A stretch of 43,776 nt of DNA, taken from a virus. Lineage: Duplodnaviria > Heunggongvirae > Uroviricota > Caudoviricetes. Location of the stretch: IMG/VR virus record IMGVR_UViG_2537562190_000013; one strand, given 5' to 3'. The notes under the pieces are model-generated. The model was not told the origin of the DNA. It made no database searches and saw nothing but the letters and a program-made list of their open reading frames with translations. Below are positions 415-23,591 of this stretch, in pieces (the first letter of the stretch is position 1; the number at the start of each line of letters is the position of its first letter). A program made the position numbers and the translations under genes.

Positions 415-2133
415 ATGATTTTTAGGGATAGCTTGAGAGTATTACCTTATGGTCGAGTAGATAATGATTTCTTCCAGATAGAAGAAAGACGTTCATGGAA
501 TGCAGGGCGATATTATTGGTCTAATAGAAGGATTTTTGGTTATATTGGAATTACTCAATCCAGTAATAAAGAGCTGAAAGATAAGTCGGGGAGAGAGGGA
601 TTCATAAGAAACCAGGCTGCAAGAGAACTGAAAACTATTATATCTAATTTGTTAACTGAACTTGCTGATAGATTTTTTGGTTCACGTTCTGATGACCGTA
701 AAGAGCTTTTAGAACAAGTTAAGCGTGAAAAAGAGTTAAGAAAATCTGCTCAACAACAAGCTCGAAAATCAACACAAAAAAGTTTTTCAGAAGCTTTGAA
801 GAATCAGACACCAGTTCTTGATGCTTCCTTGGAGGCTGTTAAAAGGCTGAAAACTAAGCTTGATAAAACTGATGGTTCGTTAGATTTAAACTATCTTAAA
901 ATTATAGACAGTGATCTTACAAACTTAGATGCGTTGCGCAGTGAAATTAAAACGCCTATCAAACCTCCAAAACTTGGAATGTATGAAGAGAAATATAGAG
1001 ACTACAGAGATAAATTTAATGAGTTCTCTGCGTATATTCTACAAATGAAGTTAGCAATTAATAAACTTGATTCTGAATTAAATAAACTTGAGCCTTCATT
1101 GTCAGCGAAAAATCACCTTGAAAAAAATCAAGGTATTATTAATTCTAAACTAACTAAGTTTAATAACACGATAGAGGAGAAGATACATTCTCTTTTAAAA
1201 AAATGGGCCGATGAAATAAAGGTTGATCGAAGTGATTATTATGCTAAAACTATATCAGTTGTTGATTCAATAGATAATGATTCACAAATTGAAAATGTGT
1301 TTAATTTGCTCGATAGTTTATATGTTGAGTCAGTTGATACCCTAACTTTCAAATATCAATCAATAATAAAAGGTCTCGATAGATTATTTGAAGGTATAAA
1401 CTTAGATTCAGCATTCTCATTATCTGAAGAAGAACGCTCATATTTTGAAGAAAAAGCTAAAAGTTTAAACGCGCTTGCACAGTTAGGTATTAGTGTTGAG
1501 ATAATATCTCATGAACTTGAAGAAATGGATTCTATGGTAACCAGAGGACTAAACTCTCTTCCTACTTCTGTAAAAGAACACCCTGGTTTTTCATTGGCGT
1601 TAAATGCTCACAGATCGCTTACTCAACAAATACGTTTCTTATCACCTTTGAAAATATCAGGTTATCAATCCAGGCAGAGAATAACTGGAAAAAATATCAT
1701 GGATTATGTCCTGAAGTTCTTTGGGGAGCGTTTCGAACGGCAACGAATAACTATTGAATTTAGTGAAGAGTTTAAGCAAATCGCAATAACAGATATACCA
1801 TCAAGGATCTATCCTGTTTTTACTAATATTATCAACAATGCAATGTATTGGGTCAGTCTGTCAAATAATAGGCTCATAAAGATTGGTTTTGTGAATTCTT
1901 TGGTTATCATAGCAAATTCTGGTCCGGCAATTGATACCGATGATATCCCGCGACTATTTGAACTATTTTATAGCAAAAGAGCAAATGGACATGGGGTAGG
2001 TCTGTATCTATGTCGAGAAAACCTTGCTGTTGCACATCATAAAATATGGTATTTAGAACCTGATGAAGGCGATAACTATTTAATAAAAGATGGCGCTAAT
2101 TTTGTGATCCAGTTCAATGGAGTGGAGTTCTAA
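415..2133 (+). CDS. Cytoplasmic histidine-kinase-like protein: N-terminal coiled-coil-rich region, H-box-like ISHELEE, C-terminal HATPase_c (GHKL) domain
   Basis: 572-aa ORF; N-box-like NIINNAMYW, G1-like ANSGPAID and G2-like GHGVGLYLCRE motifs near the C-terminus; no obvious transmembrane segments; AT-rich codon usage; frame is open back to 334 with an in-frame stop at 331-333. Confidence 0.6.
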   Translation: MIFRDSLRVLPYGRVDNDFFQIEERRSWNAGRYYWSNRRIFGYIGITQSSNKELKDKSGREGFIRNQAARELKTIISNLLTELADRFFGSRSDDRKELLEQVKREKELRKSAQQQARKSTQKSFSEALKNQTPVLDASLEAVKRLKTKLDKTDGSLDLNYLKIIDSDLTNLDALRSEIKTPIKPPKLGMYEEKYRDYRDKFNEFSAYILQMKLAINKLDSELNKLEPSLSAKNHLEKNQGIINSKLTKFNNTIEEKIHSLLKKWADEIKVDRSDYYAKTISVVDSIDNDSQIENVFNLLDSLYVESVDTLTFKYQSIIKGLDRLFEGINLDSAFSLSEEERSYFEEKAKSLNALAQLGISVEIISHELEEMDSMVTRGLNSLPTSVKEHPGFSLALNAHRSLTQQIRFLSPLKISGYQSRQRITGKNIMDYVLKFFGERFERQRITIEFSEEFKQIAITDIPSRIYPVFTNIINNAMYWVSLSNNRLIKIGFVNSLVIIANSGPAIDTDDIPRLFELFYSKRANGHGVGLYLCRENLAVAHHKIWYLEPDEGDNYLIKDGANFVIQFNGVEF

Positions 2134-2134
2134 T

Positions 2135-3496
2135 ATGACAGTGGCAAATTATAATTCTCTTGTCCAGAAAACTTTCTGCGAAAATGCAATTCGTTCCGTT
2201 GTCATGATTGATGACGATTTTCTGACGTATTCTGAATCAATCAGGGCGTTGAATAACGAAGTTGATTTAGACTACAACAAAATTGACTCATCTAAACGAG
2301 CCGCTACTCTTGAGAGCTTTTTTCAATCTAAAAATATGATTTGTGATGTTGACAATGGTTCTGTTAATTTCGATGTGGATCGGATTAGAAAATCAGATCT
2401 TATTATTGTAGATTATCATCTTGATAATAATGCACCTGATAAAACACTTAAACTATTACAAGATTTGAAAGACTCCGATCATTTAAATATGATTGTAATA
2501 TATACTAGAGAGAATTTAGAAACGGTTTGGATGCAGATATCATCGACTCTCAAAGGTGCTCTGGATATCAACAGCTTGATCATTGACTACGATAATGAAG
2601 ATGTCCAAAGTTATTGGGAAGACGTTGTATTACCGAACTTAAATGATAATGGTAATAAAGCTCTCACAAGAGATGAAACAATAGCCTATATTAAAGACAG
2701 TAAGCCTTGTAGAAGAATTAAAAGATTAATACATGATGATGCTGTGTTGGAGGATCAAAAGGATAAAAACTTCATTGCAAAAATGATTGCAGAATATGCT
2801 GTGTCTAGAAATGCAATTATTTCTAGCAACACATCTGGCAATGTCATTCGGGGTGATGAAAGCGGAGTAAAATGGATTCAATGTGGTAATATCTTTGTCT
2901 CCCTATTTCATAAGGTTCAAGATGATCATGAAAACGATGGAGATAGGATTTGGCAAACTCTCAATGATTCTCTCATTGAATGGAAACCATCTTATTATCA
3001 GTTAATAAAATCTGAAATTCAGAATGCAATCGAAGCTGAGGCTTTATCTTTTGTAAATCATTTGGCTAACGATCATTACGGTCAAGCTGCGTGGTTAAAT
3101 GAGATATTAAAATCAGACTCGCCTGATATTAGATGTAGAAATATTGACTTTGTATTTGGTAATTTATCAGAAGAGCTTTATCAAAGACTTAAAAATAATA
3201 ATACGCTGGATGAATTTATCAAAAGTGTTTTTGATAGCTATTCAAATGAATACGCTAACAGCGGAGTTGCTGCATTGCTCCAATATTGCTCTTCAAAAAT
3301 GGATCTGCCATCAAATAATGATACTTATCACGAAATGTATCATGCTTTAAATATGAATTTGTCTTCAAAGAATTTTGAAGATGGTCATATTTCTACTGGC
3401 ACTATTTTCTTTGATACAGAGTCGAACAAATGGTATTTATGTGTATCTGCGGCATGTGATTTGGTTCCTACTCAGGGTAACGACCCTCACCATGTA
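2135..3496 (+). pseudogene. Receiver (REC)-like domain protein with large unknown C-terminal domain, 5' part; interrupted by IS629-like insertion
   Basis: ORF overlaps upstream gene (stop TAA 2131-2133, ATG 2135, GGAG upstream); REC-like motifs VVMIDDD ... DLIIVDYHL ... MIVIYT; the stop TGA at 3497-3499 is supplied by the first bases of the IS. Confidence 0.6.
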
Positions 3497-3538
3497 TGAA
3501 CCGCCCCGGGTTTCCTGGAGAGTGTTTTATCTGTGAAC

Positions 3539-4426
3539 TCAGGCTGCCAGATCATTATTTCCGATGGAAGCATAATAAGCTTTTTCTGCTTCTGCCGGAG
3601 GAATATGGCCCAGCCTTTCCAGCAATCGTCGATTGTTATACCAGTCCACCCACGTTAGTGTGGCCTGTTCCACTTCTGTCCGGTTTTTCCAGCTCTTACG
3701 GTGTATTACCTCCGCTTTGTAAAGACCATTGATGCTCTCAGCCATCGCGTTGTCATACGAGTCGCCAGTACTCCCTGTTGATGCCAGTAATCCGGCTTCC
3801 TTAAGCCGCTGCGTGTAGGCCAGCGATACATACTGAGAACCTTTATCACTGTGATGGATTGTGCCGGACGGCCGACGGGCCCACAACGCCTGCTCCAGTG
3901 CATCCAGCACGAATGTTGTTTCCATGGATGATGAGACCTGCCATCCCACGATGTATCCGGCGAACACATCAATGATGAACGCCACATAAACGAAGCCCTG
4001 CCATGTGCTTACCCAGGTAAAATCAGCCACCCACAACTGGTCTGGACGTTCTGCCACGAACTGACGGTTTACGCGGTCGCATGCGGCAACGGCTTTCCGG
4101 CTGACGGTAGTGCGGACCTTTTTACCCCGGAGAACACCGGCAAGTCCCATAACTGCCATGAGACGTGCCACAGTGCATCTGGCCACTCTGATACCTTCCC
4201 GTAACAACTGACGCCAGACTTTACGCACACCGTATACCTGGTGATTTTCATCGTATACGCGCTGTATCTCTTTCTTCAGCCAGTCATCGTGCTGCGCACG
4301 GGCACTGCGTTTATCCGGATGATGTCGCTGTTGCTGACAATGGTAATACGTTGACGGGGCAATATGCAGTTCGCTGCATACCGGTCCGACCCCGTACTGC
4401 TCACGCAGCTTATCCAGCAGTGGCAT
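3539..4426 (-). CDS. IS3-family transposase OrfB (DDE integrase core)
   Basis: 295-aa [16 protein letters not shown]...; DDE region ...SDKGSQY...YDNAMAESINGLYKAE... Confidence 0.85.
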   Translation of the reverse strand: MPLLDKLREQYGVGPVCSELHIAPSTYYHCQQQRHHPDKRSARAQHDDWLKKEIQRVYDENHQVYGVRKVWRQLLREGIRVARCTVARLMAVMGLAGVLRGKKVRTTVSRKAVAACDRVNRQFVAERPDQLWVADFTWVSTWQGFVYVAFIIDVFAGYIVGWQVSSSMETTFVLDALEQALWARRPSGTIHHSDKGSQYVSLAYTQRLKEAGLLASTGSTGDSYDNAMAESINGLYKAEVIHRKSWKNRTEVEQATLTWVDWYNNRRLLERLGHIPPAEAEKAYYASIGNNDLAA

Positions 4427-4752
4427 TATTTTTTCCAGAGGCGGTCGAACTCCGCCTTCGCAAAATAAGCGGAAGCCTGGCGAAGGATATCGTTACTGCG
4501 GCGCAGTTCACGATTTTCACGTTCCAGCTCTTTCAGACGCTGACGTTCAGCGGTGGTGAGTCCACCATCACCACTCCCGGTATCCCGCTCATGCTGGCGA
4601 ACCCAGACACGCAGAGTCTCCGGCGTACAGCCAATCTTTGGGGCAATGGAACAAATTGCCGCCCACTGTGAGTCATATTCATCCTGACTTTCCAGAACCA
4701 TACGAATCGCCCGCTGACGGACTTCGGGGGAAAAACGAGTATTTTTAGTCAT
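4426..4752 (-). CDS. IS3-family transposase OrfA (HTH, leucine-zipper region)
   Basis: 108-aa [22 protein letters not shown]...; overlaps orfB across an AAAAAA slippery stretch, typical of -1 frameshift-generated OrfAB. Confidence 0.85.
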
Positions 4753-4809
4753 CCTGTTTACCTCTTTCTCAGGGAGTTTAGTCTCCAGGATTTCCGGGGC
4801 GGTTCAGTA

Positions 4810-5196
4810 AGATTAAGTCCGCACAGGCTCATTAAAGTTCTGGAGCTTTTTAACGCCAGTCAGAGTAAAGCATTGCCATTTGCTGAACATTCGAAATATA
4901 TATATGTAATGCATAAAAATCAAAGAAAATATCTCTCTATTTTCGAAGGGGATAAAACGCTTCCTGTTGTTGATTATATGGTGGTGTTGAATCATGGAAC
5001 AACAGTTGATGGCGAAGAAAAAAATATTATTTCTGCCGTGTTTTTAAGTAATATGGATGGCAACGTGCAAAATGTTCCTGTCCGACTCAAACTTAAATCT
5101 CAACTGAGAACTGGTTATGCAGAAAGATATCAGGCTATAGCGTCTCAGTATAGCTCAAGGATTGGTGTGGATTATGTATCAATGATGCTACCATAA
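4810..5196 (+). pseudogene. 3' part of the IS-interrupted REC-domain gene (in frame with 2135-3496 once the IS and one GTA repeat are removed)
   Basis: Frame of 2135-3496 continues without stop from 4810 to the TAA at 5194-5196; the track ORF 4873-5196 is the tail of this frame. Confidence 0.6.
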
Positions 5197-5267
5197 TTAT
5201 TATATTTTAGGCGTGGTGATTTTTTTTCGCCATGCCTATTTTATATTTATCATCACAATGATGTTGT

Positions 5268-5684
5268 TTATTTTTGTTTAAGTCTTCTAAGCTTCATGCA
5301 TTCTAATGAGAATAATAATAGAGTTGTGCTGTATATAAAGCCAGAGTTAGTTAATAACTTTAAATTTAATGCTTCAGGATTTTCACTGAGAAAGTGAAAG
5401 GCATAAACTAAGTATACAGCTAAAGTAGCCGTTCCAATTGTTGGTCCAATATCGCCTTGATCATGAGGTTCAAGGTTTACATTGAACTTGAAGATTAGCC
5501 ATTCAAATCCCCAAGTAAAAAAAACAACTAATATCATGGCTGCGAATAATTTCGCGATGTTATCTGCTGATGGATTCATCAGAACAGATTGTTTCTGAAA
5601 AAATTCACAAAGTGAGAGTCCGAAAAAAATAAAAAAAAGTGGTCTGGAACTAAATTTTTCAAAAACTTTGAATAGGGTTTCCAT
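5268..5684 (-). CDS. Small hydrophobic (putative membrane) protein, unknown function
   Basis: 138-aa ORF with several hydrophobic stretches (FFIFFGLSLCEFF, AAMILVVFFTWGFEWLIF, ATLAVYLVYAFHF); AT-rich. Confidence 0.45.
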   Translation of the reverse strand: METLFKVFEKFSSRPLFFIFFGLSLCEFFQKQSVLMNPSADNIAKLFAAMILVVFFTWGFEWLIFKFNVNLEPHDQGDIGPTIGTATLAVYLVYAFHFLSENPEALNLKLLTNSGFIYSTTLLLFSLECMKLRRLKQK

Positions 5685-5740
5685 TTTCTTTACCTTCAGG
5701 ATTATATTAGCTATTCTGATACTTAGGCTACCAGAGCATT

Positions 5741-6952
5741 TTATCTTTGAGCTTGAACGTAATCACTCCACCATTGCATCAAACTCTGTCGCTCTATCAG
5801 ATATTCTGCACGATTGTATGCTGCGATAATTTCATCTTTTTTCGAGTGGGCAAGCGCTGCCTCAAGAACTTCAGCTCTGAATTTACCAGACTCCTCTGCC
5901 GCTGTTCGTGCAATAGAACGCATACCGTGAGCTACAAGCTCGCCTCCGAACCCCATTCGGATGATAGCTGCGTTGGCTGTTTGTTCATGCATATGATTAA
6001 GAGGCGCTTTTATGCTGGGGAAAACCCATTCTCTATGCCCACTTATTGATTTCATTAATTCAAGGATGCGCAAAGCTTCTTTACTCAAAGGAACTTTGTG
6101 AAGCTTTTTCATTTTCATGAAATCAGCAGGAATGTTCCAAATGCTGTTGGTTGTATCAATATCAGACCACCTTGCGCGAACGGCTTCACCCGGACGAACC
6201 CATGTCAACAATTGCCATTCAATTAGCATACGTGTTTCCAACCGGATTGACGCATTCGTCAAAGATTCCATAAACCTTGGCAATTCGCTTGGGGGAAGGG
6301 CAGGCATATTTTGCTTTTTTGGTTTACTGAATCTTTGACCAAGGTTGTCAGCCGGGTTGAACTCAATAAGTTCTTCAGTAGCTGCCCACCGGAAGATTTC
6401 ATTCAGACGTGAAATGATACGGCGTAGAGTTTCCAATACGCCTCGTTGCTCAATAGGATCAAGGTGTTGTTTTAAGAGCTTAGGTCGGATCTCATTGATA
6501 GGGACATTACCCAGACCGGGAAAGACATTTCTCTCTAAGCTGCGCCAGATGTCTGCTGCATGGTCTTGTGAGATACCTGATGTCTTTACCTTCTCATCTA
6601 ACCATTTCCGCGCTACGGCTTGGAGAGTGTGCTCAGTAGCACTCTTTAATGCCTTCGCCTTATCGTTGTTATGGATTTGGGGATCAACACCATTTGCCAG
6701 AAAGGAGAGATATTCATCACGTAAGGCTCTGGCTCTTGCAAGGGTAAGGTGAGGATATGTCCCAAGGCTCATTTTGGTTCTTTTCTTGCTCACTGGTACT
6801 GCATACCTGAAATACCAATTTTTCTTGCCTCCTTTCGCCAAAGGAGCGATTCGTAGAATCAGACCATCACCGTCAAACAAGTTGATTTCTTTATCGGCTG
6901 GCTTGGTGCTTTTGATTTCAGTGTCAGTGAGCTTCTTAGCGATTTTTGCCAT
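5741..6952 (-). CDS. int: Tyrosine recombinase / P4-type integrase
   Basis: N-terminal arm-binding-like MAKIAKKLTDTEIKSTKP...LFDGDGL; C-terminal catalytic-domain-like motifs; ATG at 6952 has a GAGGG ribosome-binding site; the track ORF extends to 6994. Confidence 0.85.
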   Translation of the reverse strand: MAKIAKKLTDTEIKSTKPADKEINLFDGDGLILRIAPLAKGGKKNWYFRYAVPVSKKRTKMSLGTYPHLTLARARALRDEYLSFLANGVDPQIHNNDKAKALKSATEHTLQAVARKWLDEKVKTSGISQDHAADIWRSLERNVFPGLGNVPINEIRPKLLKQHLDPIEQRGVLETLRRIISRLNEIFRWAATEELIEFNPADNLGQRFSKPKKQNMPALPPSELPRFMESLTNASIRLETRMLIEWQLLTWVRPGEAVRARWSDIDTTNSIWNIPADFMKMKKLHKVPLSKEALRILELMKSISGHREWVFPSIKAPLNHMHEQTANAAIIRMGFGGELVAHGMRSIARTAAEESGKFRAEVLEAALAHSKKDEIIAAYNRAEYLIERQSLMQWWSDYVQAQR

Positions 6953-7117
6953 TTTGGGACCCTCGGTTTTTGGACCCTTCTTAGTGGGTCCCATTCAGGG
7001 TGCCATAACTCGTAGTTCTCAGCAATTCTCACTGGACGACAATAGACGTAAAAAAGCCCGCAGAGCTTGTGCTGTGTGGGCTTAGTAGACTTCATTGAAC
7101 TTCAAACAACTAAAAAG

Positions 7118-7149
7118 TGGTGGAGCTGGCGGGAGTTGAACCAGCGTCC
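7118..7149 (-). other. att core: 32-bp copy of tmRNA (ssrA) 3' end (T-arm plus acceptor stem plus CCA), not a complete gene
   Basis: Minus-strand reading GGACGCTGGTTCAACTCCCGCCAGCTCCACCA; sequence further upstream does not continue as tmRNA. Confidence 0.7.
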
Positions 7150-7239
7150 ATTTGTTTTTAATTTATTGATTTTTATTGTTTTATTTTATTTCTCGCATGC
7201 TTCGTGTACTTCACGTATCCTTTTTAAGGAAATATATAT

Positions 7240-7905
7240 TTATGGATTCTTGCTTAAAAAATATTCGAAGTTATGGTTGCCAAGCACATACCTCATTTCT
7301 CCCCGTGTGCGGTAAAAAGAAGTTTGAATCTCATCAACATAGTAGTTAAAAAAAATCTTTAACATTTCGGTAGTCATCTTTTGCAAATGGGTTGACAGTT
7401 TAGCTGCATTACTTTTTGAATCAGACTTTAATAAATCTGGAAATGATGCTGTGATATTTAATTTAACTTTAGATGATGAGTGTAACCAGCCACATGCTTG
7501 TTTATACTGTGAATGCATGTACGCCCAGTTTTCATCAGTGTTGGTAGATTTAAGATTCTCGAAATCAAGAGTTCTAATTGTAATATCGAAATCCCCCCCG
7601 TTATCAACTTTTTGTAAGGATATACGTGCAAGATGTTCAATCATTGAGCGAAAATTAAGATGAAGATATCGCTCTCGTTTATGAAGTATCGCTGTAATTG
7701 AACTTAAAACATCATAAATAATACTTTTTATAAAGGTTTTGTGACTTATTTCTGGATGTGAGTTATGGATAAACTCCAGAAAAAGTACATGTTTATAAGC
7801 CGATGTAAGATTGTTTTCGGTGCGAATATCGACCTGAAATGATTTTATCATTGTGATAAATTCTTTCACGTCTTTTCTAAATCCATGTGGGTCTCTTTGA
7901 AGCAT
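7240..7905 (-). CDS. Hypothetical protein, third gene of ParA-like operon
   Basis: 221-aa ORF; start ATG overlaps upstream stop (TAATG); AT-rich; no recognised motifs. Confidence 0.55.
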   Translation of the reverse strand: MLQRDPHGFRKDVKEFITMIKSFQVDIRTENNLTSAYKHVLFLEFIHNSHPEISHKTFIKSIIYDVLSSITAILHKRERYLHLNFRSMIEHLARISLQKVDNGGDFDITIRTLDFENLKSTNTDENWAYMHSQYKQACGWLHSSSKVKLNITASFPDLLKSDSKSNAAKLSTHLQKMTTEMLKIFFNYYVDEIQTSFYRTRGEMRYVLGNHNFEYFLSKNP

Positions 7906-8318
7906 TATTTTCTATCCTTCTTCAAAAGAGCATTAATCCACGTACCTACATCTCGATTTGCATTACGTTTGACGTTACTTTTTTTAAAAGTAAGTGAGTT
8001 TTCATTATATCCAATAATAAATTTGTCAGTTTTAAAATACTCTGATGCTTTATATATGCATTCTTTAATGTCTCTCTCGCTCATATTTACAAGATTACGG
8101 GTAAGTCTAGCGCATAATAAAGTTCTTGACTTGATGACGTAGTCTAAGAAACTTAATCCAAATACATTTTTTACGAATTCTGCTGCATCTTCATTTTTAA
8201 CAAAAATTTCCCTAGAATAGATTGCTATTGTTATCAAACCAATAAACGCTTCTTTTGACGAGGGCTTCTTATAAACCAATGTCTGTAATAATTCGAGGTT
8301 GTTACTATTTTTATTCAT
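7905..8318 (-). CDS. Hypothetical protein, second gene of ParA-like operon
   Basis: 137-aa ORF overlapping ParA-like gene by 8 nt; AT-rich; no recognised motifs. Confidence 0.55.
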   Translation of the reverse strand: MNKNSNNLELLQTLVYKKPSSKEAFIGLITIAIYSREIFVKNEDAAEFVKNVFGLSFLDYVIKSRTLLCARLTRNLVNMSERDIKECIYKASEYFKTDKFIIGYNENSLTFKKSNVKRNANRDVGTWINALLKKDRK

Positions 8319-9162
8319 CTTCCCCCCCCGTTTGCACTTCTTGGATCCGACTTAAAAACTCTTCACAAATCGCTTTGATATATTTTCTGGATGATTTATA
8401 ACTTGATGATATATTACCTCTACCACCCACCATCAAATCCTGTACAAACTTCAACTGGTTATCAAAAAAGTATAGTTCATTAAAAGGTTCAGTACTTTCA
8501 AAGTCTGTCTTTAGCTTTTTTGTCTTTTTTGATAGATTTTCTAGGGTATTAGTATAAATAAAACCAAGGTTTTGAATGTTTTTATGGTCATAATTATCTT
8601 GAATGTTTTCTATTACGCTTAAAAGACTTGTCGCACCTAAAATTGAGTAGTGGTCAATTTTAACTGGCACAATATAATAATCTGAAGCAACGAGAGCTGC
8701 ATCAGTAAATAATGAAATGGTTGGTGGGCTATCGATCAAAATGAAGTCATATATATCTCGAAGCTTATGTTCTTCTATAAAGCGTTTTAGCTTATGTAAT
8801 CTTGCCGCAGGTTGTTCAATATCAAATATTGTATTAATATCACCAAAAATCATATCTAAGTGCTCTGACATCTTGATGATAATTTCATCAGGAGTGACCT
8901 GCTGAACTTTACCCGTTAAGCTTGATTTTGTCTCGAATATTCGTCTGATGGTTTTTGTATTTTCTAAGTGATCAGCTATATACTCTTTCACTCGATCATA
9001 TTTACTAAGTATTGACTGTGTAGCGTTAAATTGTGGGTCAATATCGATAATTAATACCTTTTTATCCATGAAGTTTGCAAGATATTCAGCAATGCCGACG
9101 CATAAAGTTGTTTTACCAACCCCACCTTTCATATTTATGAAACTTATTACTGGTGTAGTCAT
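8311..9162 (-). CDS. ParA/MinD/Soj-family P-loop ATPase (small, type Ib-like, no N-terminal HTH)
   Basis: Deviant Walker A MKGGVGKTT, A' motif IIDIDPQ, Walker B FILIDSPP; GGGA ribosome-binding site. Confidence 0.75.
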   Translation of the reverse strand: MTTPVISFINMKGGVGKTTLCVGIAEYLANFMDKKVLIIDIDPQFNATQSILSKYDRVKEYIADHLENTKTIRRIFETKSSLTGKVQQVTPDEIIIKMSEHLDMIFGDINTIFDIEQPAARLHKLKRFIEEHKLRDIYDFILIDSPPTISLFTDAALVASDYYIVPVKIDHYSILGATSLLSVIENIQDNYDHKNIQNLGFIYTNTLENLSKKTKKLKTDFESTEPFNELYFFDNQLKFVQDLMVGGRGNISSSYKSSRKYIKAICEEFLSRIQEVQTGGEDE

Positions 9163-9412
9163 TTTATCCCTCTAATTTATACTTCTTAAACAAAAATTTA
9201 AATGTTACATGTAAGTGAATTTACTTATAACATTTTTTTTGAAACAATAATACTGTTGTTTTATCAGGGGGATGGCATTTTTCAATGGAATAAATCTATA
9301 AGGGGTATGCTCATAATTGTAAAGAATACCTATTCAAGCGTGGATTTGTGGAGGACCTCTCGTTTTGAACGAAATAGGCTTCTTTGAATAACATGCTTTA
9401 CCTTGCTCAAGG

Positions 9413-10588
9413 CTACTTTTTGCAATTACTTGTGAGCGTTGTTGAGCTGTGGTTGTCATAATCACTCAAGTAACGCCCATAATGACGAAACAACATTTCG
9501 GGCCCCTTATGCCCCATCTGCCCTGCTAGCCAGAAGAGATTAGCTCCTTGGCTAATGTACTTAGTAGCATAAGTGTGCCTGGTCTGATATGGGTTTCTGT
9601 AGCGAATACCTGCTTTTCGCAATGTTGGCACCCATGCTTTTTTCCTGATTGCATCAGCACTTGCCCAAGGCTTATTGGTCTTTGGATCTTCAAAGACCGT
9701 AGCATCTTTCATGAACGTAAATGGCTTCTGATTTATCAGCGCCAACATTGCCTCTTCTGTCAGTTCAACTTTACGAGTACCGGCTTTTGTTTTGGTCCCT
9801 TTGATAACACCAACAACACTTGCGCTCTGGACATGTGCTGTTTTTCCAACAAAGTCGATATCACGCCATCGAAGGGCACATAGTTCAGAACTACGCAGGC
9901 CTGTATGTATAGCGAACCGGAACAGATTTTCCCATTGTTTGTTTCCGGCTGCTGCTAGTAATGCATCAACTTCTGCTGGTGATAGCGGATCAACCACATA
10001 GCTGCTTTCTGCTTCTGACTTATCACTTTGGTAGCGCGAAGCTGTTACTAACGATACGGGGTTAATTTGAAGTACCCCATCGGTCACGGCTTCATCAAGT
10101 GCTGACCGCAGGAAAGATAACTGGTTGCGAATGGTTTTTAAGGTTGTTTTCTGGCTTTGAATCCACGCTTTCAGGGTTGCTGGTGTTAATTCACTTGCAG
10201 GGCAAATGTGAAGTGAGGCTAACGCACTACGGCATTTTTTATAGCCACCAATCGTAGAGGGTGAAAGTTTTCTTGTTTCGCAGATTTCAAGATATTCGTC
10301 CAGGTACATCTTTACCGTTTTGCCTGCAGCAGCATTACCAAAAATTTTCAAACGAGCAGAACGGGGAAAATATTCTGCATAAATGAATGTTCCCCTTTCG
10401 ATCTTATTATGGATTTCGCCGAGTGTACGCTCGGCGTATTTAATGTTCTTTGGTGTTACTTCCAGATTGGAAAGCGGCTCACGACATCTAACTCCTTTGT
10501 AGGTGAAAGTTATATTGATCGTTTCGCCCTGGCGGTGTTTCCTGATTGTTACGCCGCGCGGTAGTTTGAGCAGTTTTGTCTGGCCCAT
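9413..10588 (-). CDS. int: Prophage tyrosine integrase
   Basis: 391-aa ORF with C-terminal catalytic-domain-like motifs (...HTGLRSSEL..., ...TRHTYAT..., ...LAGQMGHK...); overlaps the upstream xis-like gene. Confidence 0.85.
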   Translation of the reverse strand: MGQTKLLKLPRGVTIRKHRQGETINITFTYKGVRCREPLSNLEVTPKNIKYAERTLGEIHNKIERGTFIYAEYFPRSARLKIFGNAAAGKTVKMYLDEYLEICETRKLSPSTIGGYKKCRSALASLHICPASELTPATLKAWIQSQKTTLKTIRNQLSFLRSALDEAVTDGVLQINPVSLVTASRYQSDKSEAESSYVVDPLSPAEVDALLAAAGNKQWENLFRFAIHTGLRSSELCALRWRDIDFVGKTAHVQSASVVGVIKGTKTKAGTRKVELTEEAMLALINQKPFTFMKDATVFEDPKTNKPWASADAIRKKAWVPTLRKAGIRYRNPYQTRHTYATKYISQGANLFWLAGQMGHKGPEMLFRHYGRYLSDYDNHSSTTLTSNCKK

Positions 10589-15892: not shown

Positions 15893-16227
15893 ACAGTTTA
15901 ACAACACACTACCGTCGCTCGCAACTGATTGCGCTTCCTGTACCGGGTGGAAAAGCGAAGGTGGAGTATTGCTATGCAGTTAATGTACCAGGTGACAGGG
16001 AAATTGTAACCCACAGCTTTGCTGAGTGGGCTGTGGGTGATTTCAACCGGCAGAAGGAGACAGTCCTTTGCGACAAGTTAACCGCTGGTTCAAAGATCAC
16101 TACGGAGTGCCCGTCAGAGTCATTCGTTGGGAGCCGGAAACACAACGAGTTATCTACCTCCGCGAAGGCTATGAGCATGAGTGCTTCAGCCCGCTCGAAC
16201 AGTTTCGTCGTAAATTCAGGGAAATAG
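15889..16227 (+). CDS. Hypothetical protein; 3' part may be frameshifted (alternative frame 16041-16247 looks more protein-like and ends overlapping the next start)
   Basis: Frame-1 ORF of 112 aa; a frame-3 segment [34 protein letters not shown] has no start codon. Confidence 0.4.
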
Positions 16228-16236
16228 AGGTCGGTC

Positions 16237-17178
16237 ATGAGCACTAAATTAACCGGCTATGTATGGGATGGTTGCGCTGCATCAGGCATGAAATTATCCA
16301 GCGTGGCAATTATGGCCCGCCTGGCTGATTTCAGTAATGACGAAGGTGTGTGCTGGCCATCAATTGAAACTATTGCCCGTCAGATTGGCGCGGGGATGAG
16401 TACCGTCAGGACGGCTATCGCACGGCTGGAAGCAGAAGGCTGGTTAACGCGTAAGGCGCGTCGCCAGGGTAACCGCAATGCGTCGAATGTTTATCAGCTT
16501 AACGTTGCGAAGCTTCAGGCAGCGGCATTTTCTCAACTGTCAGATTCTGACCCGTCAAAATCTGACGCATCAAAATCTGACCCGTCAAAATTTGATGCGT
16601 CGAAATCTGGCAAAAAAGCGGGTTTTCACCCGTCAGAATCTGGCGGGGATCCGTCAGTAAAATCAAAACATGATCCGTCAGATAAAAAACCTTCTCGTCC
16701 GGACGCTTCGCAACCGGACACGCAGACGGATGAACAGGATTTTTTAACTCGCCATCCTGATGCGGTTGTATTCAGCCCTAAAAAGCGCCAGTGGGGAACG
16801 CAGGATGATTTGACCTGCGCACAGTGGCTCTGGAAAAAAATCATCGCCCTGTACGAGCAGGCCGCCGAATGTGACGGCGAGGTGGTTCGTCCCAAAGAAC
16901 CGAACTGGACAGCCTGGGCAAACGAAATTCGCCTGATGTGTGTGCAGGATGGTCGTAATCATAAACAAATCTGCGAGATGTACAGCCGCGTCAGTCGCGA
17001 TCCGTTCTGGTGCCGTAACGTGCTCAGCCCGTCGAAGCTGCGGGAAAAATGGGATGAGCTTTCCCTGCGCTTATCGCCGTCCATCAGCACATACACAGAA
17101 AAACGCGAAGACCCATATTTCAAATCCAGTTACGACAACGTGGACTACAGCCAGATCCCGGCAGGATTCAGGGGGTGA
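16237..17178 (+). CDS. Replication initiator (lambda O-like role) with N-terminal HTH and internal iteron-encoded peptide repeats
   Basis: N-terminal HTH-like SVAIMARLADFSNDEGVCWPSIETIARQIGAGMSTVRTAIARLE; repeat DPSKSDASKSDPSKFDASKS encoded by the iterons. Confidence 0.7.
   Translation: MSTKLTGYVWDGCAASGMKLSSVAIMARLADFSNDEGVCWPSIETIARQIGAGMSTVRTAIARLEAEGWLTRKARRQGNRNASNVYQLNVAKLQAAAFSQLSDSDPSKSDASKSDPSKFDASKSGKKAGFHPSESGGDPSVKSKHDPSDKKPSRPDASQPDTQTDEQDFLTRHPDAVVFSPKKRQWGTQDDLTCAQWLWKKIIALYEQAAECDGEVVRPKEPNWTAWANEIRLMCVQDGRNHKQICEMYSRVSRDPFWCRNVLSPSKLREKWDELSLRLSPSISTYTEKREDPYFKSSYDNVDYSQIPAGFRG
16541..16690. repeat. Putative replication origin: about 5 tandem 15-bp iterons (around TCAAAATCTGACCCG) followed by related spaced copies and an A-rich tract
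   Basis: Direct repeats containing CCGTCA(A/G)AAT(C/T)TG at 16552, 16582, 16630, 16651, 16675; lies inside the replication gene as in lambda ori. Confidence 0.6.
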
Positions 17179-17669
17179 GCATGAGTCTTTTGAATGAAGT
17201 TCAGAAATTCATTGAAGCCCATCCGGGCTGTACTTCCGGAGACATTGCGGATGCTTTTGCAGGTTACTCACGGCAGCGCGTTCTGCAGTCAGCAAGCAAG
17301 TTACGTCAGAGTGGGCGTGTGGCTCACTATTGTGAAGGGGATACACGCAGACATTTCCCGCGCCTGACTGAGAGAGCGCAGGAGCCGGAACCGCAACCAG
17401 TTCGTGAAACCAGACCTGTGCGCAATTTCTATGTCGGCACTAACGATCCACGGGTGATTTTGTGCCTGACCCGCCAGGCTGAAGAACTGGAGTCCAGGGG
17501 CCTATACCGTCGTGCTGCAACGGTGTGGATGGCGGCATTCCGTGAAAGCCACTCCCAGCCAGAACGAAACAATTTTCTGGCGCGTCGTGAGCAGTGCTTA
17601 CAGAAAAGCAGCAAGCGCGCTGCATCGGGTGAAGAGTGGTATCTGTCAGGGAATTACGTGGGGGCTTAA
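17175..17669 (+). CDS. PerC-family regulator-like protein
   Basis: C-terminal LESRGLYRRAATVWMAAF...FLARREQCL resembles the PerC/Pch signature. Confidence 0.5.
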   Translation: MSMSLLNEVQKFIEAHPGCTSGDIADAFAGYSRQRVLQSASKLRQSGRVAHYCEGDTRRHFPRLTERAQEPEPQPVRETRPVRNFYVGTNDPRVILCLTRQAEELESRGLYRRAATVWMAAFRESHSQPERNNFLARREQCLQKSSKRAASGEEWYLSGNYVGA

Positions 17670-18322
17670 TGAGTAATAAATATTGCCAGGCGCTGGTGGA
17701 ACTGCGGAACAAACCAGCCCATGAACTGAAGGAAGTGGGCGATCAGTGGCGCACGCCGGATAACATTTTCTGGGGAATTAACACCCTGTTTGGCCCGTTT
17801 GTTCTGGATCTGTTCACTGACGGTGATAACGCCAAATGTGCCGCGTATTACACGGCGGAAGACAACGCGCTGGCGCATGACTGGTCAGAACGTCTTGCGG
17901 AGCTTAAAGGTGCTGCCTTTGGTAATCCCCCATACAGCCGCGCCAGTCAGCATGAGGGGCAATACATCACAGGCATGCGTTACATCATGAAGCATGCCAG
18001 TGCCATGCGTGATAAAGGTGGGCGCTATGTTTTCCTGATCAAAGCTGCCACCAGCGAAGTGTGGTGGCCGGAAGATGCAGATCATATTGCTTTTATTCGC
18101 GGGCGTATCGGTTTTGAACTGCCTGCCTGGTTTATCCCGAAGGATGAGAAGCAGGTGCCGACAGGCGCTTTCTTCGCTGGTGCTATTGCTGTTTTCGACA
18201 AGACCTGGAAGGGACCGGCAATCAGCTACATCGGGCGCGATGAACTTGAGGCATGTGGTGAGGCCTTTCTGGCGCAGGTTCGCCAGCAGGCAGAAAAACT
18301 GGTCAGGGAGATGGTGGCATGA
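17669..18322 (+). CDS. Phage orphan DNA N6-adenine methyltransferase (Dam-like)
   Basis: Catalytic NPPY motif (FGNPPYS); ATG overlaps upstream stop (TAATG). Confidence 0.75.
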   Translation: MSNKYCQALVELRNKPAHELKEVGDQWRTPDNIFWGINTLFGPFVLDLFTDGDNAKCAAYYTAEDNALAHDWSERLAELKGAAFGNPPYSRASQHEGQYITGMRYIMKHASAMRDKGGRYVFLIKAATSEVWWPEDADHIAFIRGRIGFELPAWFIPKDEKQVPTGAFFAGAIAVFDKTWKGPAISYIGRDELEACGEAFLAQVRQQAEKLVREMVA

Positions 18323-20847: not shown

Positions 20848-21219
20848 TTGTGGAGAAAGTTGATGCGTGATATGTATGAAGTAATGGATCGTTGGGGAGC
20901 TTGGGCTGCTTCAGACAATAGCGGAGTGGACTGGCAGCCGATAGCGGCTGGTTTCAAGGGACTTTTACCTCATGGCAAAAAGTCACGGATTCAGTGTGAT
21001 GATGACGAAGGCATCATGATAGACAGTTGTGTGGCTCGGTTGAGAAGGTATAAACCAGAGGAATATGAGCTCATCATCGCCCACTTTGTTATCGGTATCT
21101 CATTACGCACTATTGCGAAGAAGAGAAAATGCTCTGATGGCACAATTAGGAAGGAACTGCAAACTGCAATGGGGTTTGTTGACGGCTGTTTAGCAATGTT
21201 AGCTTATAGTATGGCATAA
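20848..21219 (+). CDS. Q: Late-gene antiterminator Q (small Q family)
   Basis: MRDMYEVMDRWGAWAA...WQPIAAGFKGLL... pattern recalled from E. coli prophage Q proteins; sits upstream of the lysis cassette. Confidence 0.7.
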   Translation: MWRKLMRDMYEVMDRWGAWAASDNSGVDWQPIAAGFKGLLPHGKKSRIQCDDDEGIMIDSCVARLRRYKPEEYELIIAHFVIGISLRTIAKKRKCSDGTIRKELQTAMGFVDGCLAMLAYSMA

Positions 21220-22413
21220 AAAATAAAATAGATTTACTGCCGATTTTTCAAAAAAGACTGGGAACTGTTTATATCCAACGTAAATAAGGCCTCCATAAAA
21301 CATGGCTGATGCGAGATATTTAACAGTTCTCATCCTTTTTTTAGCTTTATCAATCAAACCTGTAATGCTACTCTTAATACTATCTGCATTATCTTTGATT
21401 TCTTTATTTTCTTCAAACTTTAAATACTTATCGAAAGCGGACTCCACTCGAGAACGTAAGTTGTCGAATGTTTCATTGAATATCTCAATAGAAATGTAAT
21501 TGACTTTTTTTATCATCCAAAGTCCTGCGATAATCAATATTGCTTCGGTTGTTTCATTAGCCTTCACTAAGCCACCAGCAGCTATTAATGCACCGGGAAT
21601 AGTCAATGCTTTTGTCTGATTAGATGATATGAATTCGTTAATTTTACTCGTGAACTCAAGATTTTTCTCATCGAGTTCGTTAAGAATTTTATTTACAGAA
21701 AACCTCTTTGTGTAAATCTCATATAGTTCATCATATTTTTTCCTGACGAGTTCAGTAGAGTTAAGCAAGTCAAAGAAATTGAACGTACCATTTGCTTTAA
21801 ATACTTCGTTTATGGCTGAGCGTATAACGAGCTTGCGCTCGCTTTTGTGTAAATCATTGATTTTTATTGTGTCGAGAAGCTCCTTTATAATTTCATATTT
21901 AAGAGACGAGTTCGATAAGCGATTAATCTCGCTATATTGTAAAAAATGCGTGAGTTCGACTGTATAACTTTTGTCTTCATTGGTGAAAAATAAGACAGAG
22001 CAGTCACTGTTATGATGATCAGCAATTAATGAAAGGATATCTTTCCACATAAAGAAAATATGGATTTTTTCGATGCTTTCATTCTTAGAAGTAGGGAGTA
22101 TTAACGGCGTTCCGATGATATAATTTTTCGGAAGAGCGTTTTGGGTGTTTACTCTAGACCAAAAAGACTCAACATTCTCATAAATTATAGCGTCATCCCA
22201 AGATGAAGCTTGGCGATCTAGCCAAATTTCATTATTTTCGATGCAGGTTGTTGCCTTTTTATAACCTATAGATTGTAACAGTCTAATTATTTCAGAACTA
22301 TTTACAATAACAATGCTTTCTTCAAGACTTATGACAGTGTAGTAGCCCTCAACTCTGCTTGAGGCTCCGTTAATAATCTGCGCTAATCTTGATAAGTCAT
22401 CAGCAATTGTCAT
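21199..22413 (-). CDS. Hypothetical protein with C-terminal hydrophobic segments; second gene of Q-lysis cassette
   Basis: 404-aa AT-rich ORF; hydrophobic stretches ALTIPGALIAAGGLV, AILIIAGLWMI, LASAMFYGGLIYVGY; 3' end overlaps the Q 3' end convergently. Confidence 0.6.
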   Translation of the reverse strand: MTIADDLSRLAQIINGASSRVEGYYTVISLEESIVIVNSSEIIRLLQSIGYKKATTCIENNEIWLDRQASSWDDAIIYENVESFWSRVNTQNALPKNYIIGTPLILPTSKNESIEKIHIFFMWKDILSLIADHHNSDCSVLFFTNEDKSYTVELTHFLQYSEINRLSNSSLKYEIIKELLDTIKINDLHKSERKLVIRSAINEVFKANGTFNFFDLLNSTELVRKKYDELYEIYTKRFSVNKILNELDEKNLEFTSKINEFISSNQTKALTIPGALIAAGGLVKANETTEAILIIAGLWMIKKVNYISIEIFNETFDNLRSRVESAFDKYLKFEENKEIKDNADSIKSSITGLIDKAKKRMRTVKYLASAMFYGGLIYVGYKQFPVFFEKSAVNLFYFLCHTIS

Positions 22414-22415
22414 TA

Positions 22416-23591
22416 TTAGCTGTCTCTATATCTTTTGAGTTCATCATAATTTGCCTGACTCAATTTTATCACAATTTCGCATTTGTTGTCAGTGAGAATT
22501 ACAGGCTTATTTGACTTTTCGTCTCCAATAGCTCCACGCATTATTTTCAACTTAAAATTATTGTCGTTATCTGCCACTTCAATTGTAAGCGCGCTTTCAG
22601 CTGCTTTAGGAGTTGGTTCAAATTGAGGGTCAATCTGGAAACCATTAAGATTAACAAAATCGACAAACGTTCCCTTACATTTGTGTGAATCAGTCAGGCA
22701 TGAGTCAATTATTTTTGAAATATCCTCTATCTTAACGGACTTATTTCCGTGTTTATCTTTTGATTTTTTTTCCAGTAAGGATTTAACTTCATTGTCAATA
22801 GTATCACGCAGTACACGACCGAGTGAGTTTTTACTAGCAAAAATATCTATAGCACTGAATAATTGCTGAATGCTTCTTTTATTGTCCGAATCATGTCGGC
22901 AACCTAATGAGTCTTTGAAAAAATCGCTTTTAGATTTACCTTGCAAGAAATGTACATATGAGTCACCCTTGTTTTCTGGATAACTGGCTTCGAATAAAGT
23001 TAAATCGAACATCGCAGCCTGCCGTAAGGCATCGGTATTAATTGGATTTAATCTTGTTGGGGTCAACTTATCCGAATCAAAGTCATAGGCGCTTTGTTTA
23101 TCAACCATTACGATTAGAAGTTTCCCCAAATCCTCTGGTTCGGTAGACTTATAGTGGATGAAAACAACGCTCCCCCCCTGAAGTTGGGCAACTCTCGATT
23201 CGTTATTAGCATTATGTTTAAGCTTCTCTATTATAGCTCTAGATAAATCAATGAATTCATTATTTTTATTAATGTATTTTTTTAGGATCGTAGGAATGGA
23301 TGAAGGGTTGTGATCTGAGTCTAGGAAGTTATGAAATTTGTTTTTTCGGCTAAATTTTTTCTCAATTCTGGTTATGAATTCAGATGTGACTTCATTTTTT
23401 AGATCCCAAACTTCACCTAATCGATAATCAAATGCTCTTGAATCATTTTTTTCAAGATTTGCTGTTACAGCACCAATAGGAAAGTACGATTGTTTGCCCA
23501 GCACTACAACATGAGGCGTGGCACCGCATTTATCGCAAGCTACAGTTGGGTCGTCAAGAACATTGCCACATTCTAAACAAGTTATATCCAT
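22416..23591 (-). CDS. Zinc-ribbon plus NdpA/YejK-like (nucleoid-associated protein family) domain protein; first gene of Q-lysis cassette
   Basis: N-terminal CLECG...CDKCG; central GGSVVFIHY ... DLTLFE ... YVHFLQGKSKSDFFKDSLG block resembling the YejK family as recalled. Confidence 0.55.
   Translation of the reverse strand: MDITCLECGNVLDDPTVACDKCGATPHVVVLGKQSYFPIGAVTANLEKNDSRAFDYRLGEVWDLKNEVTSEFITRIEKKFSRKNKFHNFLDSDHNPSSIPTILKKYINKNNEFIDLSRAIIEKLKHNANNESRVAQLQGGSVVFIHYKSTEPEDLGKLLIVMVDKQSAYDFDSDKLTPTRLNPINTDALRQAAMFDLTLFEASYPENKGDSYVHFLQGKSKSDFFKDSLGCRHDSDNKRSIQQLFSAIDIFASKNSLGRVLRDTIDNEVKSLLEKKSKDKHGNKSVKIEDISKIIDSCLTDSHKCKGTFVDFVNLNGFQIDPQFEPTPKAAESALTIEVADNDNNFKLKIMRGAIGDEKSNKPVILTDNKCEIVIKLSQANYDELKRYRDS

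Follow-up and report, generated by a model that had tools for sequence, protein, structure and literature searches.

Why should an integrated prophage carry a ParA-like ATPase, a protein best known from plasmid partition? The question is raised by a small operon in the IMG/VR virus record IMGVR_UViG_2537562190_000013 (Duplodnaviria; Heunggongvirae; Uroviricota; Caudoviricetes), a stretch of 43,776 nucleotides (nt) that is referred to here, at its full length, as the window. The operon and its upstream region occupy positions 7,240 to 9,412, and a preliminary description made from the sequence had suggested that they could form a repurposed ParA-based accessory or defence cassette. This suggestion is supported both by the homology of all three encoded proteins to the components of RemAIN, a defence system of Salmonella, and by the mobile accessory-slot contexts in which the same three genes are found. 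We consider it highly probable that the operon is a prophage defence and prophage-competition system of the RemAIN type. Judged by its sequence, it appears to be an intact but divergent Escherichia coli member of this known family, with a function assigned by homology.

Similarity of the operon to Salmonella RemAIN

The ATPase encoded by the first gene shares 59% identity over 276 amino acids (aa) with STM14_3218, or RemA (E 3e-120), the 137-aa protein shares 32% identity over 117 aa with STM14_3219, or RemI (E 5e-19), and the 221-aa protein shares 43% identity over 210 aa with STM14_3220, or RemN (E 6e-63). The Salmonella reference used was an IMG/VR locus (L039) in which genes of 840 and 663 bp lie on either side of the middle gene, and the 102-aa form of its middle protein is identical in sequence to ACY89648.1 ('STM14_3219, S. 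Typhimurium 14028S'). In S. Typhimurium 14028s, the corresponding segment of prophage Gifsy-1 contains STM14_3218 (ParA-like, 840 bp), STM14_3219, and STM14_3220 (663 bp; Kurasz et al. 2023; PMC9879122).

The likeness extends to the architecture of the locus, since gene order and overlapping codons are the same in both prophages, the sizes are close (283, 137, and 221 aa here vs. 279, 128–130, and 220 aa in Gifsy-1), the Walker, RSMIEH, and Yx3Cx3H motifs are shared and both loci are AT-rich accessory cassettes borne by a prophage. Placed where the preliminary description had it, the cassette consists of three co-directional open reading frames (ORFs) on the minus strand (Table 1), flanked by an attachment (att) core of the ssrA type and by the prophage integrase. 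The ATPase gene and the 137-aa gene overlap by 8 bp (ATGAATAA), the 137-aa and 221-aa genes by 1 bp (TAATG), and the G+C content of the cassette is 32.5%, compared to 44.9% for the integrase gene and 48.4% for the whole window. The two loci also differ in several respects. The E. coli copy belongs to a separate sequence clade and to another host species; it lies between integrase and att in a contractile-tailed phage, whereas the Salmonella cassette is found in the immunity region, beside the repressor, of a lambda-like siphovirus.

Table 1. Features of the operon and of its immediate surroundings (positions in the window)
Feature	Position	Strand	Description
remA homologue	8311..9162	-	ParA/Soj-type ATPase, 283 aa; Walker A KGGVGKTT encoded at ~9109-9132
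remI homologue	7905..8318	-	137 aa, small helical protein; counterpart of the prototype's immunity protein
remN homologue	7240..7905	-	221 aa, predicted HEPN-like nuclease; RSMIEH (R86-H91) encoded at 7633-7650
Intergenic region upstream of remA	9163..9412	-	250 nt, AT-rich, from integrase stop to remA start
Imperfect palindrome, candidate operator	9200..9235	.	15-nt arms
att core, copy of the ssrA/tmRNA 3' end	~7114..7149	-	Prophage boundary; context, outside the operon
Prophage tyrosine integrase (context)	9413..10588	-	Pfam Arm-DNA-bind_2 1e-23, Phage_integrase 4e-16

RemAIN is the system published by Sargen and Helaine (2024, Cell Host Microbe 32:2063), which is known here through the papers that cite it. 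According to these papers, the STM14_3218-3220 genes, named remAIN, block the lytic cycle both of co-resident prophages and of phages coming from outside (PMC12724215), with RemA as the ATPase, RemI as an immunity protein, and RemN as a HEPN anticodon nuclease, which is grouped with PrrC and RloC (PMC12409363). As far as these accounts go, it is for the Salmonella prototype that others have established the defence phenotype, the activity of the nuclease, and what each component does. Furthermore, this three-gene region is needed for RtcR to be activated when the prophage is induced, as it is required for the 2',3'-cyclic-phosphate RNA that serves as the signal, and deletion of the region raises Gifsy titres by 2–4 fold (PMC9879122). 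Only 1 Tn5 insertion was recovered in STM14_3219, compared to 223 and 103 in its neighbours (PMC9879122), and this depletion fits the reading of STM14_3219 as an immunity gene.

A second Gifsy-1 system also involves an ATPase of this class. In the Gifsy-1 prophage of strain 4/74, the position in the immunity region that remAIN takes in strain 14028s holds a single-gene defence protein, GiPD474, which has a ParA/AAA_31-type ATPase domain as well (PMC12724215). Prophage defence systems may repeatedly make use of ATPases with the ParA fold. Neither the DefensePredictor paper nor a preprint on defence modularity mentions ParA.

Features of the three proteins and a possible mode of action

In the preliminary description, the first protein was taken for an ATPase of the ParA/Soj type whose Walker A, A', and B motifs are intact, and this assignment was borne out by its Pfam matches (AAA_31, 1.9e-38; CbiA, 2.3e-16) and by a pattern check of the translation, in which KGGVGKTT (Walker A), IDIDPQ (A'), and ILIDSPP (Walker B) were all found complete. 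The three motifs are retained in 26 of 26 distinct relatives, and the nearest solved structures are the Soj proteins of Thermus and Helicobacter (E ~1e-18). The sole PADLOC match of the ATPase, to PDC-M28B (2e-07), is limited to the P-loop (residues 3–65).

The 137-aa and 221-aa proteins have no significant match in Pfam, NCBIfam, or PADLOC, the PADLOC-DB release used (v2.0.0, 2023) being older than the RemAIN paper, although matches were obtained to two PHROG families without an assigned function. The earlier statement that neither protein has recognisable motifs does not hold for the 221-aa protein, which carries RSMIEH at residues 86–91, an Rx4H motif of the HEPN type. A second conserved motif in this RemN homologue is Y134-x3-C138-x3-H142, and across 78 relatives R86, E90, Y134, and H142 are invariant while S87, R94, and C138 are nearly so. 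The RemN structure was modelled with a predicted local distance difference test score (pLDDT) of 84, and the model, together with the Rx4H motif, may point to a HEPN-like fold. A Foldseek search of this model against the PDB found nothing, no relationship to any Pfam HEPN family was found at the sequence level, and a Pfam scan of all 78 relatives at E up to 10 returned only stray, weak matches to MtlR, DUF5677, and MC3. The model of RemI was weaker (pLDDT 68) and had no credible structural match; the conserved parts of the protein are an S-R-T core and a Trp close to its basic C-terminus. Profile searches of both small proteins against PDB sequences gave nothing, and no solved structure of RemI or RemN was identified by sequence search. 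The preliminary description had also noted that the small proteins lack ParB-like features and, in fact, we found neither a helix-turn-helix (HTH) or ribbon-helix-helix (RHH) domain nor any similarity to ParB or other centromere-binding proteins in either of them.

By homology with the prototype, RemA, RemI, and RemN would act as one unit, expressed in the lysogen from a promoter of their own. In the resting cell RemN would be held inactive by RemI, and the lytic development of a superinfecting phage, or of an induced co-resident prophage, would lead to its release or activation. RemN would then cut tRNA anticodon loops, leaving ends with a 2',3'-cyclic phosphate, translation would stall and the late functions of the phage, as well as lysis, would be blocked. 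Activity of the E. coli copy, its trigger, its tRNA targets, and a role of RemA as sensor or switch are inferred from this homology.

The promoter is presumed to lie within the intergenic region upstream of remA (Table 1). A scan for the sigma-70 consensus upstream of the remA start revealed no convincing site, promoter-like sites being even fewer than in shuffled sequences, so the promoter is placed there by inference. The same region contains the imperfect palindrome noticed in the preliminary description, which proved to be real: its arms (9200-9214 and 9221-9235) are complementary at 13 of 15 positions and separated by a 6-nt spacer, and an equally good inverted repeat appeared in 23 of 2000 dinucleotide shuffles (~1%) of the 250-nt intergenic region. 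Both the palindrome and the intergenic region as a whole are kept in a nearly identical Enterobacter copy of the operon; the palindrome is not kept in the copies of Pantoea or Proteus. Beside the operon there is no parS-like or iterated repeat array, only this one palindrome and direct repeats that are short, two-copy matches.

Distribution of the trio and alternative explanations

The window itself is chromosomal DNA of E. coli, and the complete cassette is present in 16 of 5426 complete E. coli genomes. It is 100% identical in strain 2015C-3163 and in O103:H2 strains, and identity remains at 99.7–100% across the hosts listed for the copies, which include humans, cattle, fox, chicken meat, and seawater. 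Close relatives of the 221-aa protein were found in Enterobacter, Klebsiella aerogenes, and Cronobacter, and a first search returned Enterobacterales only. An exhaustive profile search for the nuclease yielded 126 clusters (50% identity) of full-length proteins of ~220 aa, and members of the trio were also found in Vibrio, Proteus, Pantoea, Clostridium botulinum, Streptococcus phage Javan1, and Lactobacillus phage LF1. A tblastn search of RemN against the INPHARED phage collection found nothing.

Gene order was judged on the fetched loci that had enough flanking DNA and, in every one of them, a ParA-like gene, a small gene, and a ~220-aa gene follow each other in this order on one strand, abutting or overlapping. 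The surroundings are diverse. The Enterobacter trio occupies the integrase-att slot, with P4-like satellites adjoining, the trio of a Proteus prophage lies within the tail-gene module, the P2-like prophages of Pantoea and E. coli PCN061 have it at their tail-fibre end, and the trio of Vibrio sp. AND4 stands beside a repressor. In prophages of the Firmicutes type it is found either in the gap between late regulator and terminase or in that between repressor and integrase, where it adjoins a DNA methylase and a GmrSD_N/HEPN gene pair, and in Javan1 and LF1 it lies immediately before the integrase. All contexts were integrated prophages or phage genomes with integrases, and no linkage to an autonomous low-copy replicon was found in them. 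Because the three genes form a constant unit across such differing phage slots, the trio is better understood as a mobile accessory cassette than as a partition locus; co-occurrence outside partition contexts, which the preliminary description had proposed to examine, was thus the rule in all these loci, and a plasmid partition context was never seen.

Several of these loci deserve separate mention. In Javan1, an unannotated ORF of 113 aa (4899-5240 of the fetched locus), situated between the annotated ParA and a 226-aa protein, matches the RemI profile (E 4.6e-17), so this phage carries the full trio. E. coli PCN061 has a RemAIN-like trio of 281, 132, and 221 aa (4617-6518 of its locus), with a RemN that is 38% identical, and trios of this type were found on at least 1000 contigs of E. 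coli, Enterobacter, and Klebsiella, in addition to a member in Salmonella Heidelberg. A divergent trio of 276, 168, and 231 aa is present in E. coli 602354 (4109-6140 of its locus), its third protein matching the RemN profile by hhalign only (93.9%), and the ATPase gene of this type has weak DNA matches in many E. coli genomes.

One further copy of the cassette, at 16010-17932 of NZ_CP148393.1, lies on a circular record of 44.6 kb that is labelled as a plasmid and corresponds to a complete lambdoid phage genome. This phage has an integrase-remAIN module identical to that of the window but lambda-type tail genes, whereas the window prophage combines lambdoid early genes with a contractile tail, and the coexistence of one module with different tail types indicates that the lysogeny module is shuffled between phages. 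The circle may represent an excised phage caught in the assembly.

An immunity protein encoded next to a nuclease could also be the signature of a toxin-antitoxin addiction module, with RemN as the toxin, RemI as the antitoxin, and RemA as an accessory protein, which would serve to retain the prophage in the chromosome or to slow the host under stress rather than to defend against phages. Such a pairing, like the scarcity of Tn5 insertions in Salmonella remI, resembles toxin-antitoxin systems, expression of the Salmonella genes is unchanged by mitomycin C (PMC9879122), and a position at the prophage edge, beside att, would suit killing after excision. However, the prototype, as described in the citing papers, protects against external phages and blocks co-resident prophages, and the cassette is found in many positions of the phage genome, including the middle of a tail module, where a role linked to excision makes little sense. 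We regard addiction as an improbable explanation of the operon, but addiction and defence are not mutually exclusive roles.

It is more doubtful still, in our opinion, that the operon is a decayed, non-functional remnant in a defective prophage. The closest RefSeq prophage copy (NZ_CP027219.1) does contain insertion sequence (IS) elements of the IS3 family and frameshifted genes, and the complete cassette is rare among complete E. coli genomes, as said above. Against this, the three ORFs are intact with catalytic and Walker motifs all kept, the copies are nearly identical in hosts as varied as those named before and the same module is carried by the complete, apparently excised phage genome of NZ_CP148393.1.

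The last alternative is a plain partition module of type Ib that would stabilise an episomal phage, with the ATPase as ParA, the 137-aa protein as its centromere-binding partner, and the palindrome as centromere or operator. Type Ib ParB partners are small and diverse, and the operon does resemble modules such as ParF/ParG of TP228 in its small, deviant-Walker-A ParA without an N-terminal HTH, in the small size of the second protein and in the inverted repeat upstream. This explanation can nevertheless be dismissed as extremely unlikely, bona fide small ParA/Soj ATPase, circular 'plasmid' record of the whole phage and palindrome notwithstanding, as neither profile searches nor the repeat scan revealed a ParB-like partner (HTH, RHH, or ParB similarity) or an iterated array, the single imperfect palindrome is not conserved beyond Enterobacter, an obligatory third, nuclease-like gene with invariant polar residues is always present, the trio lies beside integrases, in a tail module, or beside terminase genes and never with a plasmid replicon, and the prototype has, in the accounts of the citing papers, been shown experimentally to be a defence system.

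Returning to RemAIN-type defence as the preferred explanation, several points weigh against it. When supplied on a plasmid in the LT2 background, remAIN did not restrict phage FO1 (PMC12724215), so the activity of RemAIN may depend on the host. The IS insertions and frameshifts of the closest RefSeq prophage, which speak for decay, also count here. The His of the Rx4H motif is replaced by Asn in 60 of the 78 RemN relatives, all the Firmicutes-type members among them, whereas R86, E90, Y134, and H142 never vary, and for this reason RemN may have an active site other than the one known from textbook HEPN proteins. The proteins are moderately identical to the prototype, RemI at 32%, and trigger and target specificity may consequently not be the same. 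Finally, the support for the E. coli copy comes from homology, gene order, motifs, and genomic contexts, that is, a function read from sequence. As a tentative extension, which we hold to be possible rather than probable, RemN may use a non-textbook site formed by R/E/R and Y/C/H residues on two helices, the E. coli clade (32–59% identical to the prototype) may sense another trigger and cut other tRNAs, and the RemAIN-like trios may represent a family of ParA-gated nucleases that crosses phyla and is much wider than described so far.

Neighbouring elements, related systems and significance

The surroundings of the operon in the window contain other mobile and accessory elements. The DNA of the att core matches a sequence of phage CP-1639 annotated as ssrA (10Sa RNA) as well as the ends of other phage genomes, and a weak Rfam match to the 3' end of transfer-messenger RNA (tmRNA) was found at 7118-7155; no complete tRNA or tmRNA gene is present. 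A partial Rfam match to IsrM, a small RNA (sRNA) of Salmonella islands, extends from the att/ssrA fragment into the remN 3' end (7050-7272, minus strand; 58 bits vs. a gathering score of 376, E 9e-15), and is probably due to sequence shared next to ssrA and not to an sRNA gene. Directly past the att core there is a P4-type integrase (5741-6994, minus strand), followed by a 138-aa protein without family match (5268-5684, minus strand), and this second integrase beyond the core indicates that two integrative elements lie in tandem at the ssrA site.

In the island beside the P4-type integrase, a gene pair of 33–34% G+C (415-3499, plus strand) encodes a histidine kinase (HATPase_c and HEF_HK) and a Response_reg_2 receiver protein. 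No PADLOC match was obtained for this pair, which is cut by an IS3-family element (3539-4752) and may be the remnant of another accessory system that the element has truncated. Further into the prophage, between the Q antiterminator and the lysis genes, a two-gene insert of ~35% G+C (21199-23591, minus strand) encodes a 404-aa protein without family match and an NA37 nucleoid-associated protein; it has no PADLOC match either and is a candidate for accessory or defence cargo. At ~20690 the window lacks the 1315-bp IS3-family insertion that splits a DUF968 gene in NZ_CP027219.1, which is why the RefSeq coordinates past ~20.7 kb are shifted by 1315 bases. O-antigen modification, the usual cargo of the att-integrase slot in SfV-type phages, was considered as a role for the operon and rejected, as there is no glycosyltransferase and no Pfam family in the three proteins to support it.

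The operon can be compared with other systems in which an ATPase is paired with a nuclease. PrrC and RloC, like RemAIN, combine an ATPase with a HEPN-type anticodon nuclease that stays silent until phage infection and whose cleavage leaves a 2',3'-cyclic phosphate. In PrrC and RloC, however, one polypeptide contains both the nuclease and an ABC-type ATPase, and a type I restriction enzyme keeps PrrC silent, whereas the cassette has a separate ATPase of the ParA/Soj class and a dedicated small immunity protein. PARIS is also carried on mobile elements and relies on an ATPase (the ABC ATPase AriA) that gates a tRNA-cleaving effector (the Toprim nuclease AriB) on a phage cue, but its ATPase class and nuclease fold are unrelated, it consists of two genes without a separate immunity protein and no PADLOC match to it was obtained here. 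HepT/MntA and solo HEPN defence proteins such as HepS (STM14_3211) have a helical HEPN-like effector with an Rx4-6H motif, which RemN is predicted to resemble, and HepS is moreover an anticodon nuclease encoded on the same Gifsy-1 prophage as RemAIN. The cassette differs from HepT/MntA in having no MNT nucleotidyltransferase partner, and RemN needs RemA and RemI whereas HepS acts alone.

As RemAIN and the way it works have been in print since 2024, the discovery presented here is a modest one. What possibly goes beyond the published work is how broadly the family extends across phyla, how varied its insertion slots are and, in RemN, the poor conservation of the HEPN His together with a second invariant Y/C/H motif. 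RemAIN-like trios are widespread and always found in prophage accessory slots. In Shiga-toxin-type E. coli O103 and related strains, the comparison gives a name and a function to genes that RefSeq labels as 'ParA family protein' and 'hypothetical protein', and it suggests that these lysogens carry a tRNA-cutting system able to suppress both incoming phages and the induction of neighbouring prophages. This bears on phage therapy and, in such strains, possibly also on how other co-resident prophages are induced.

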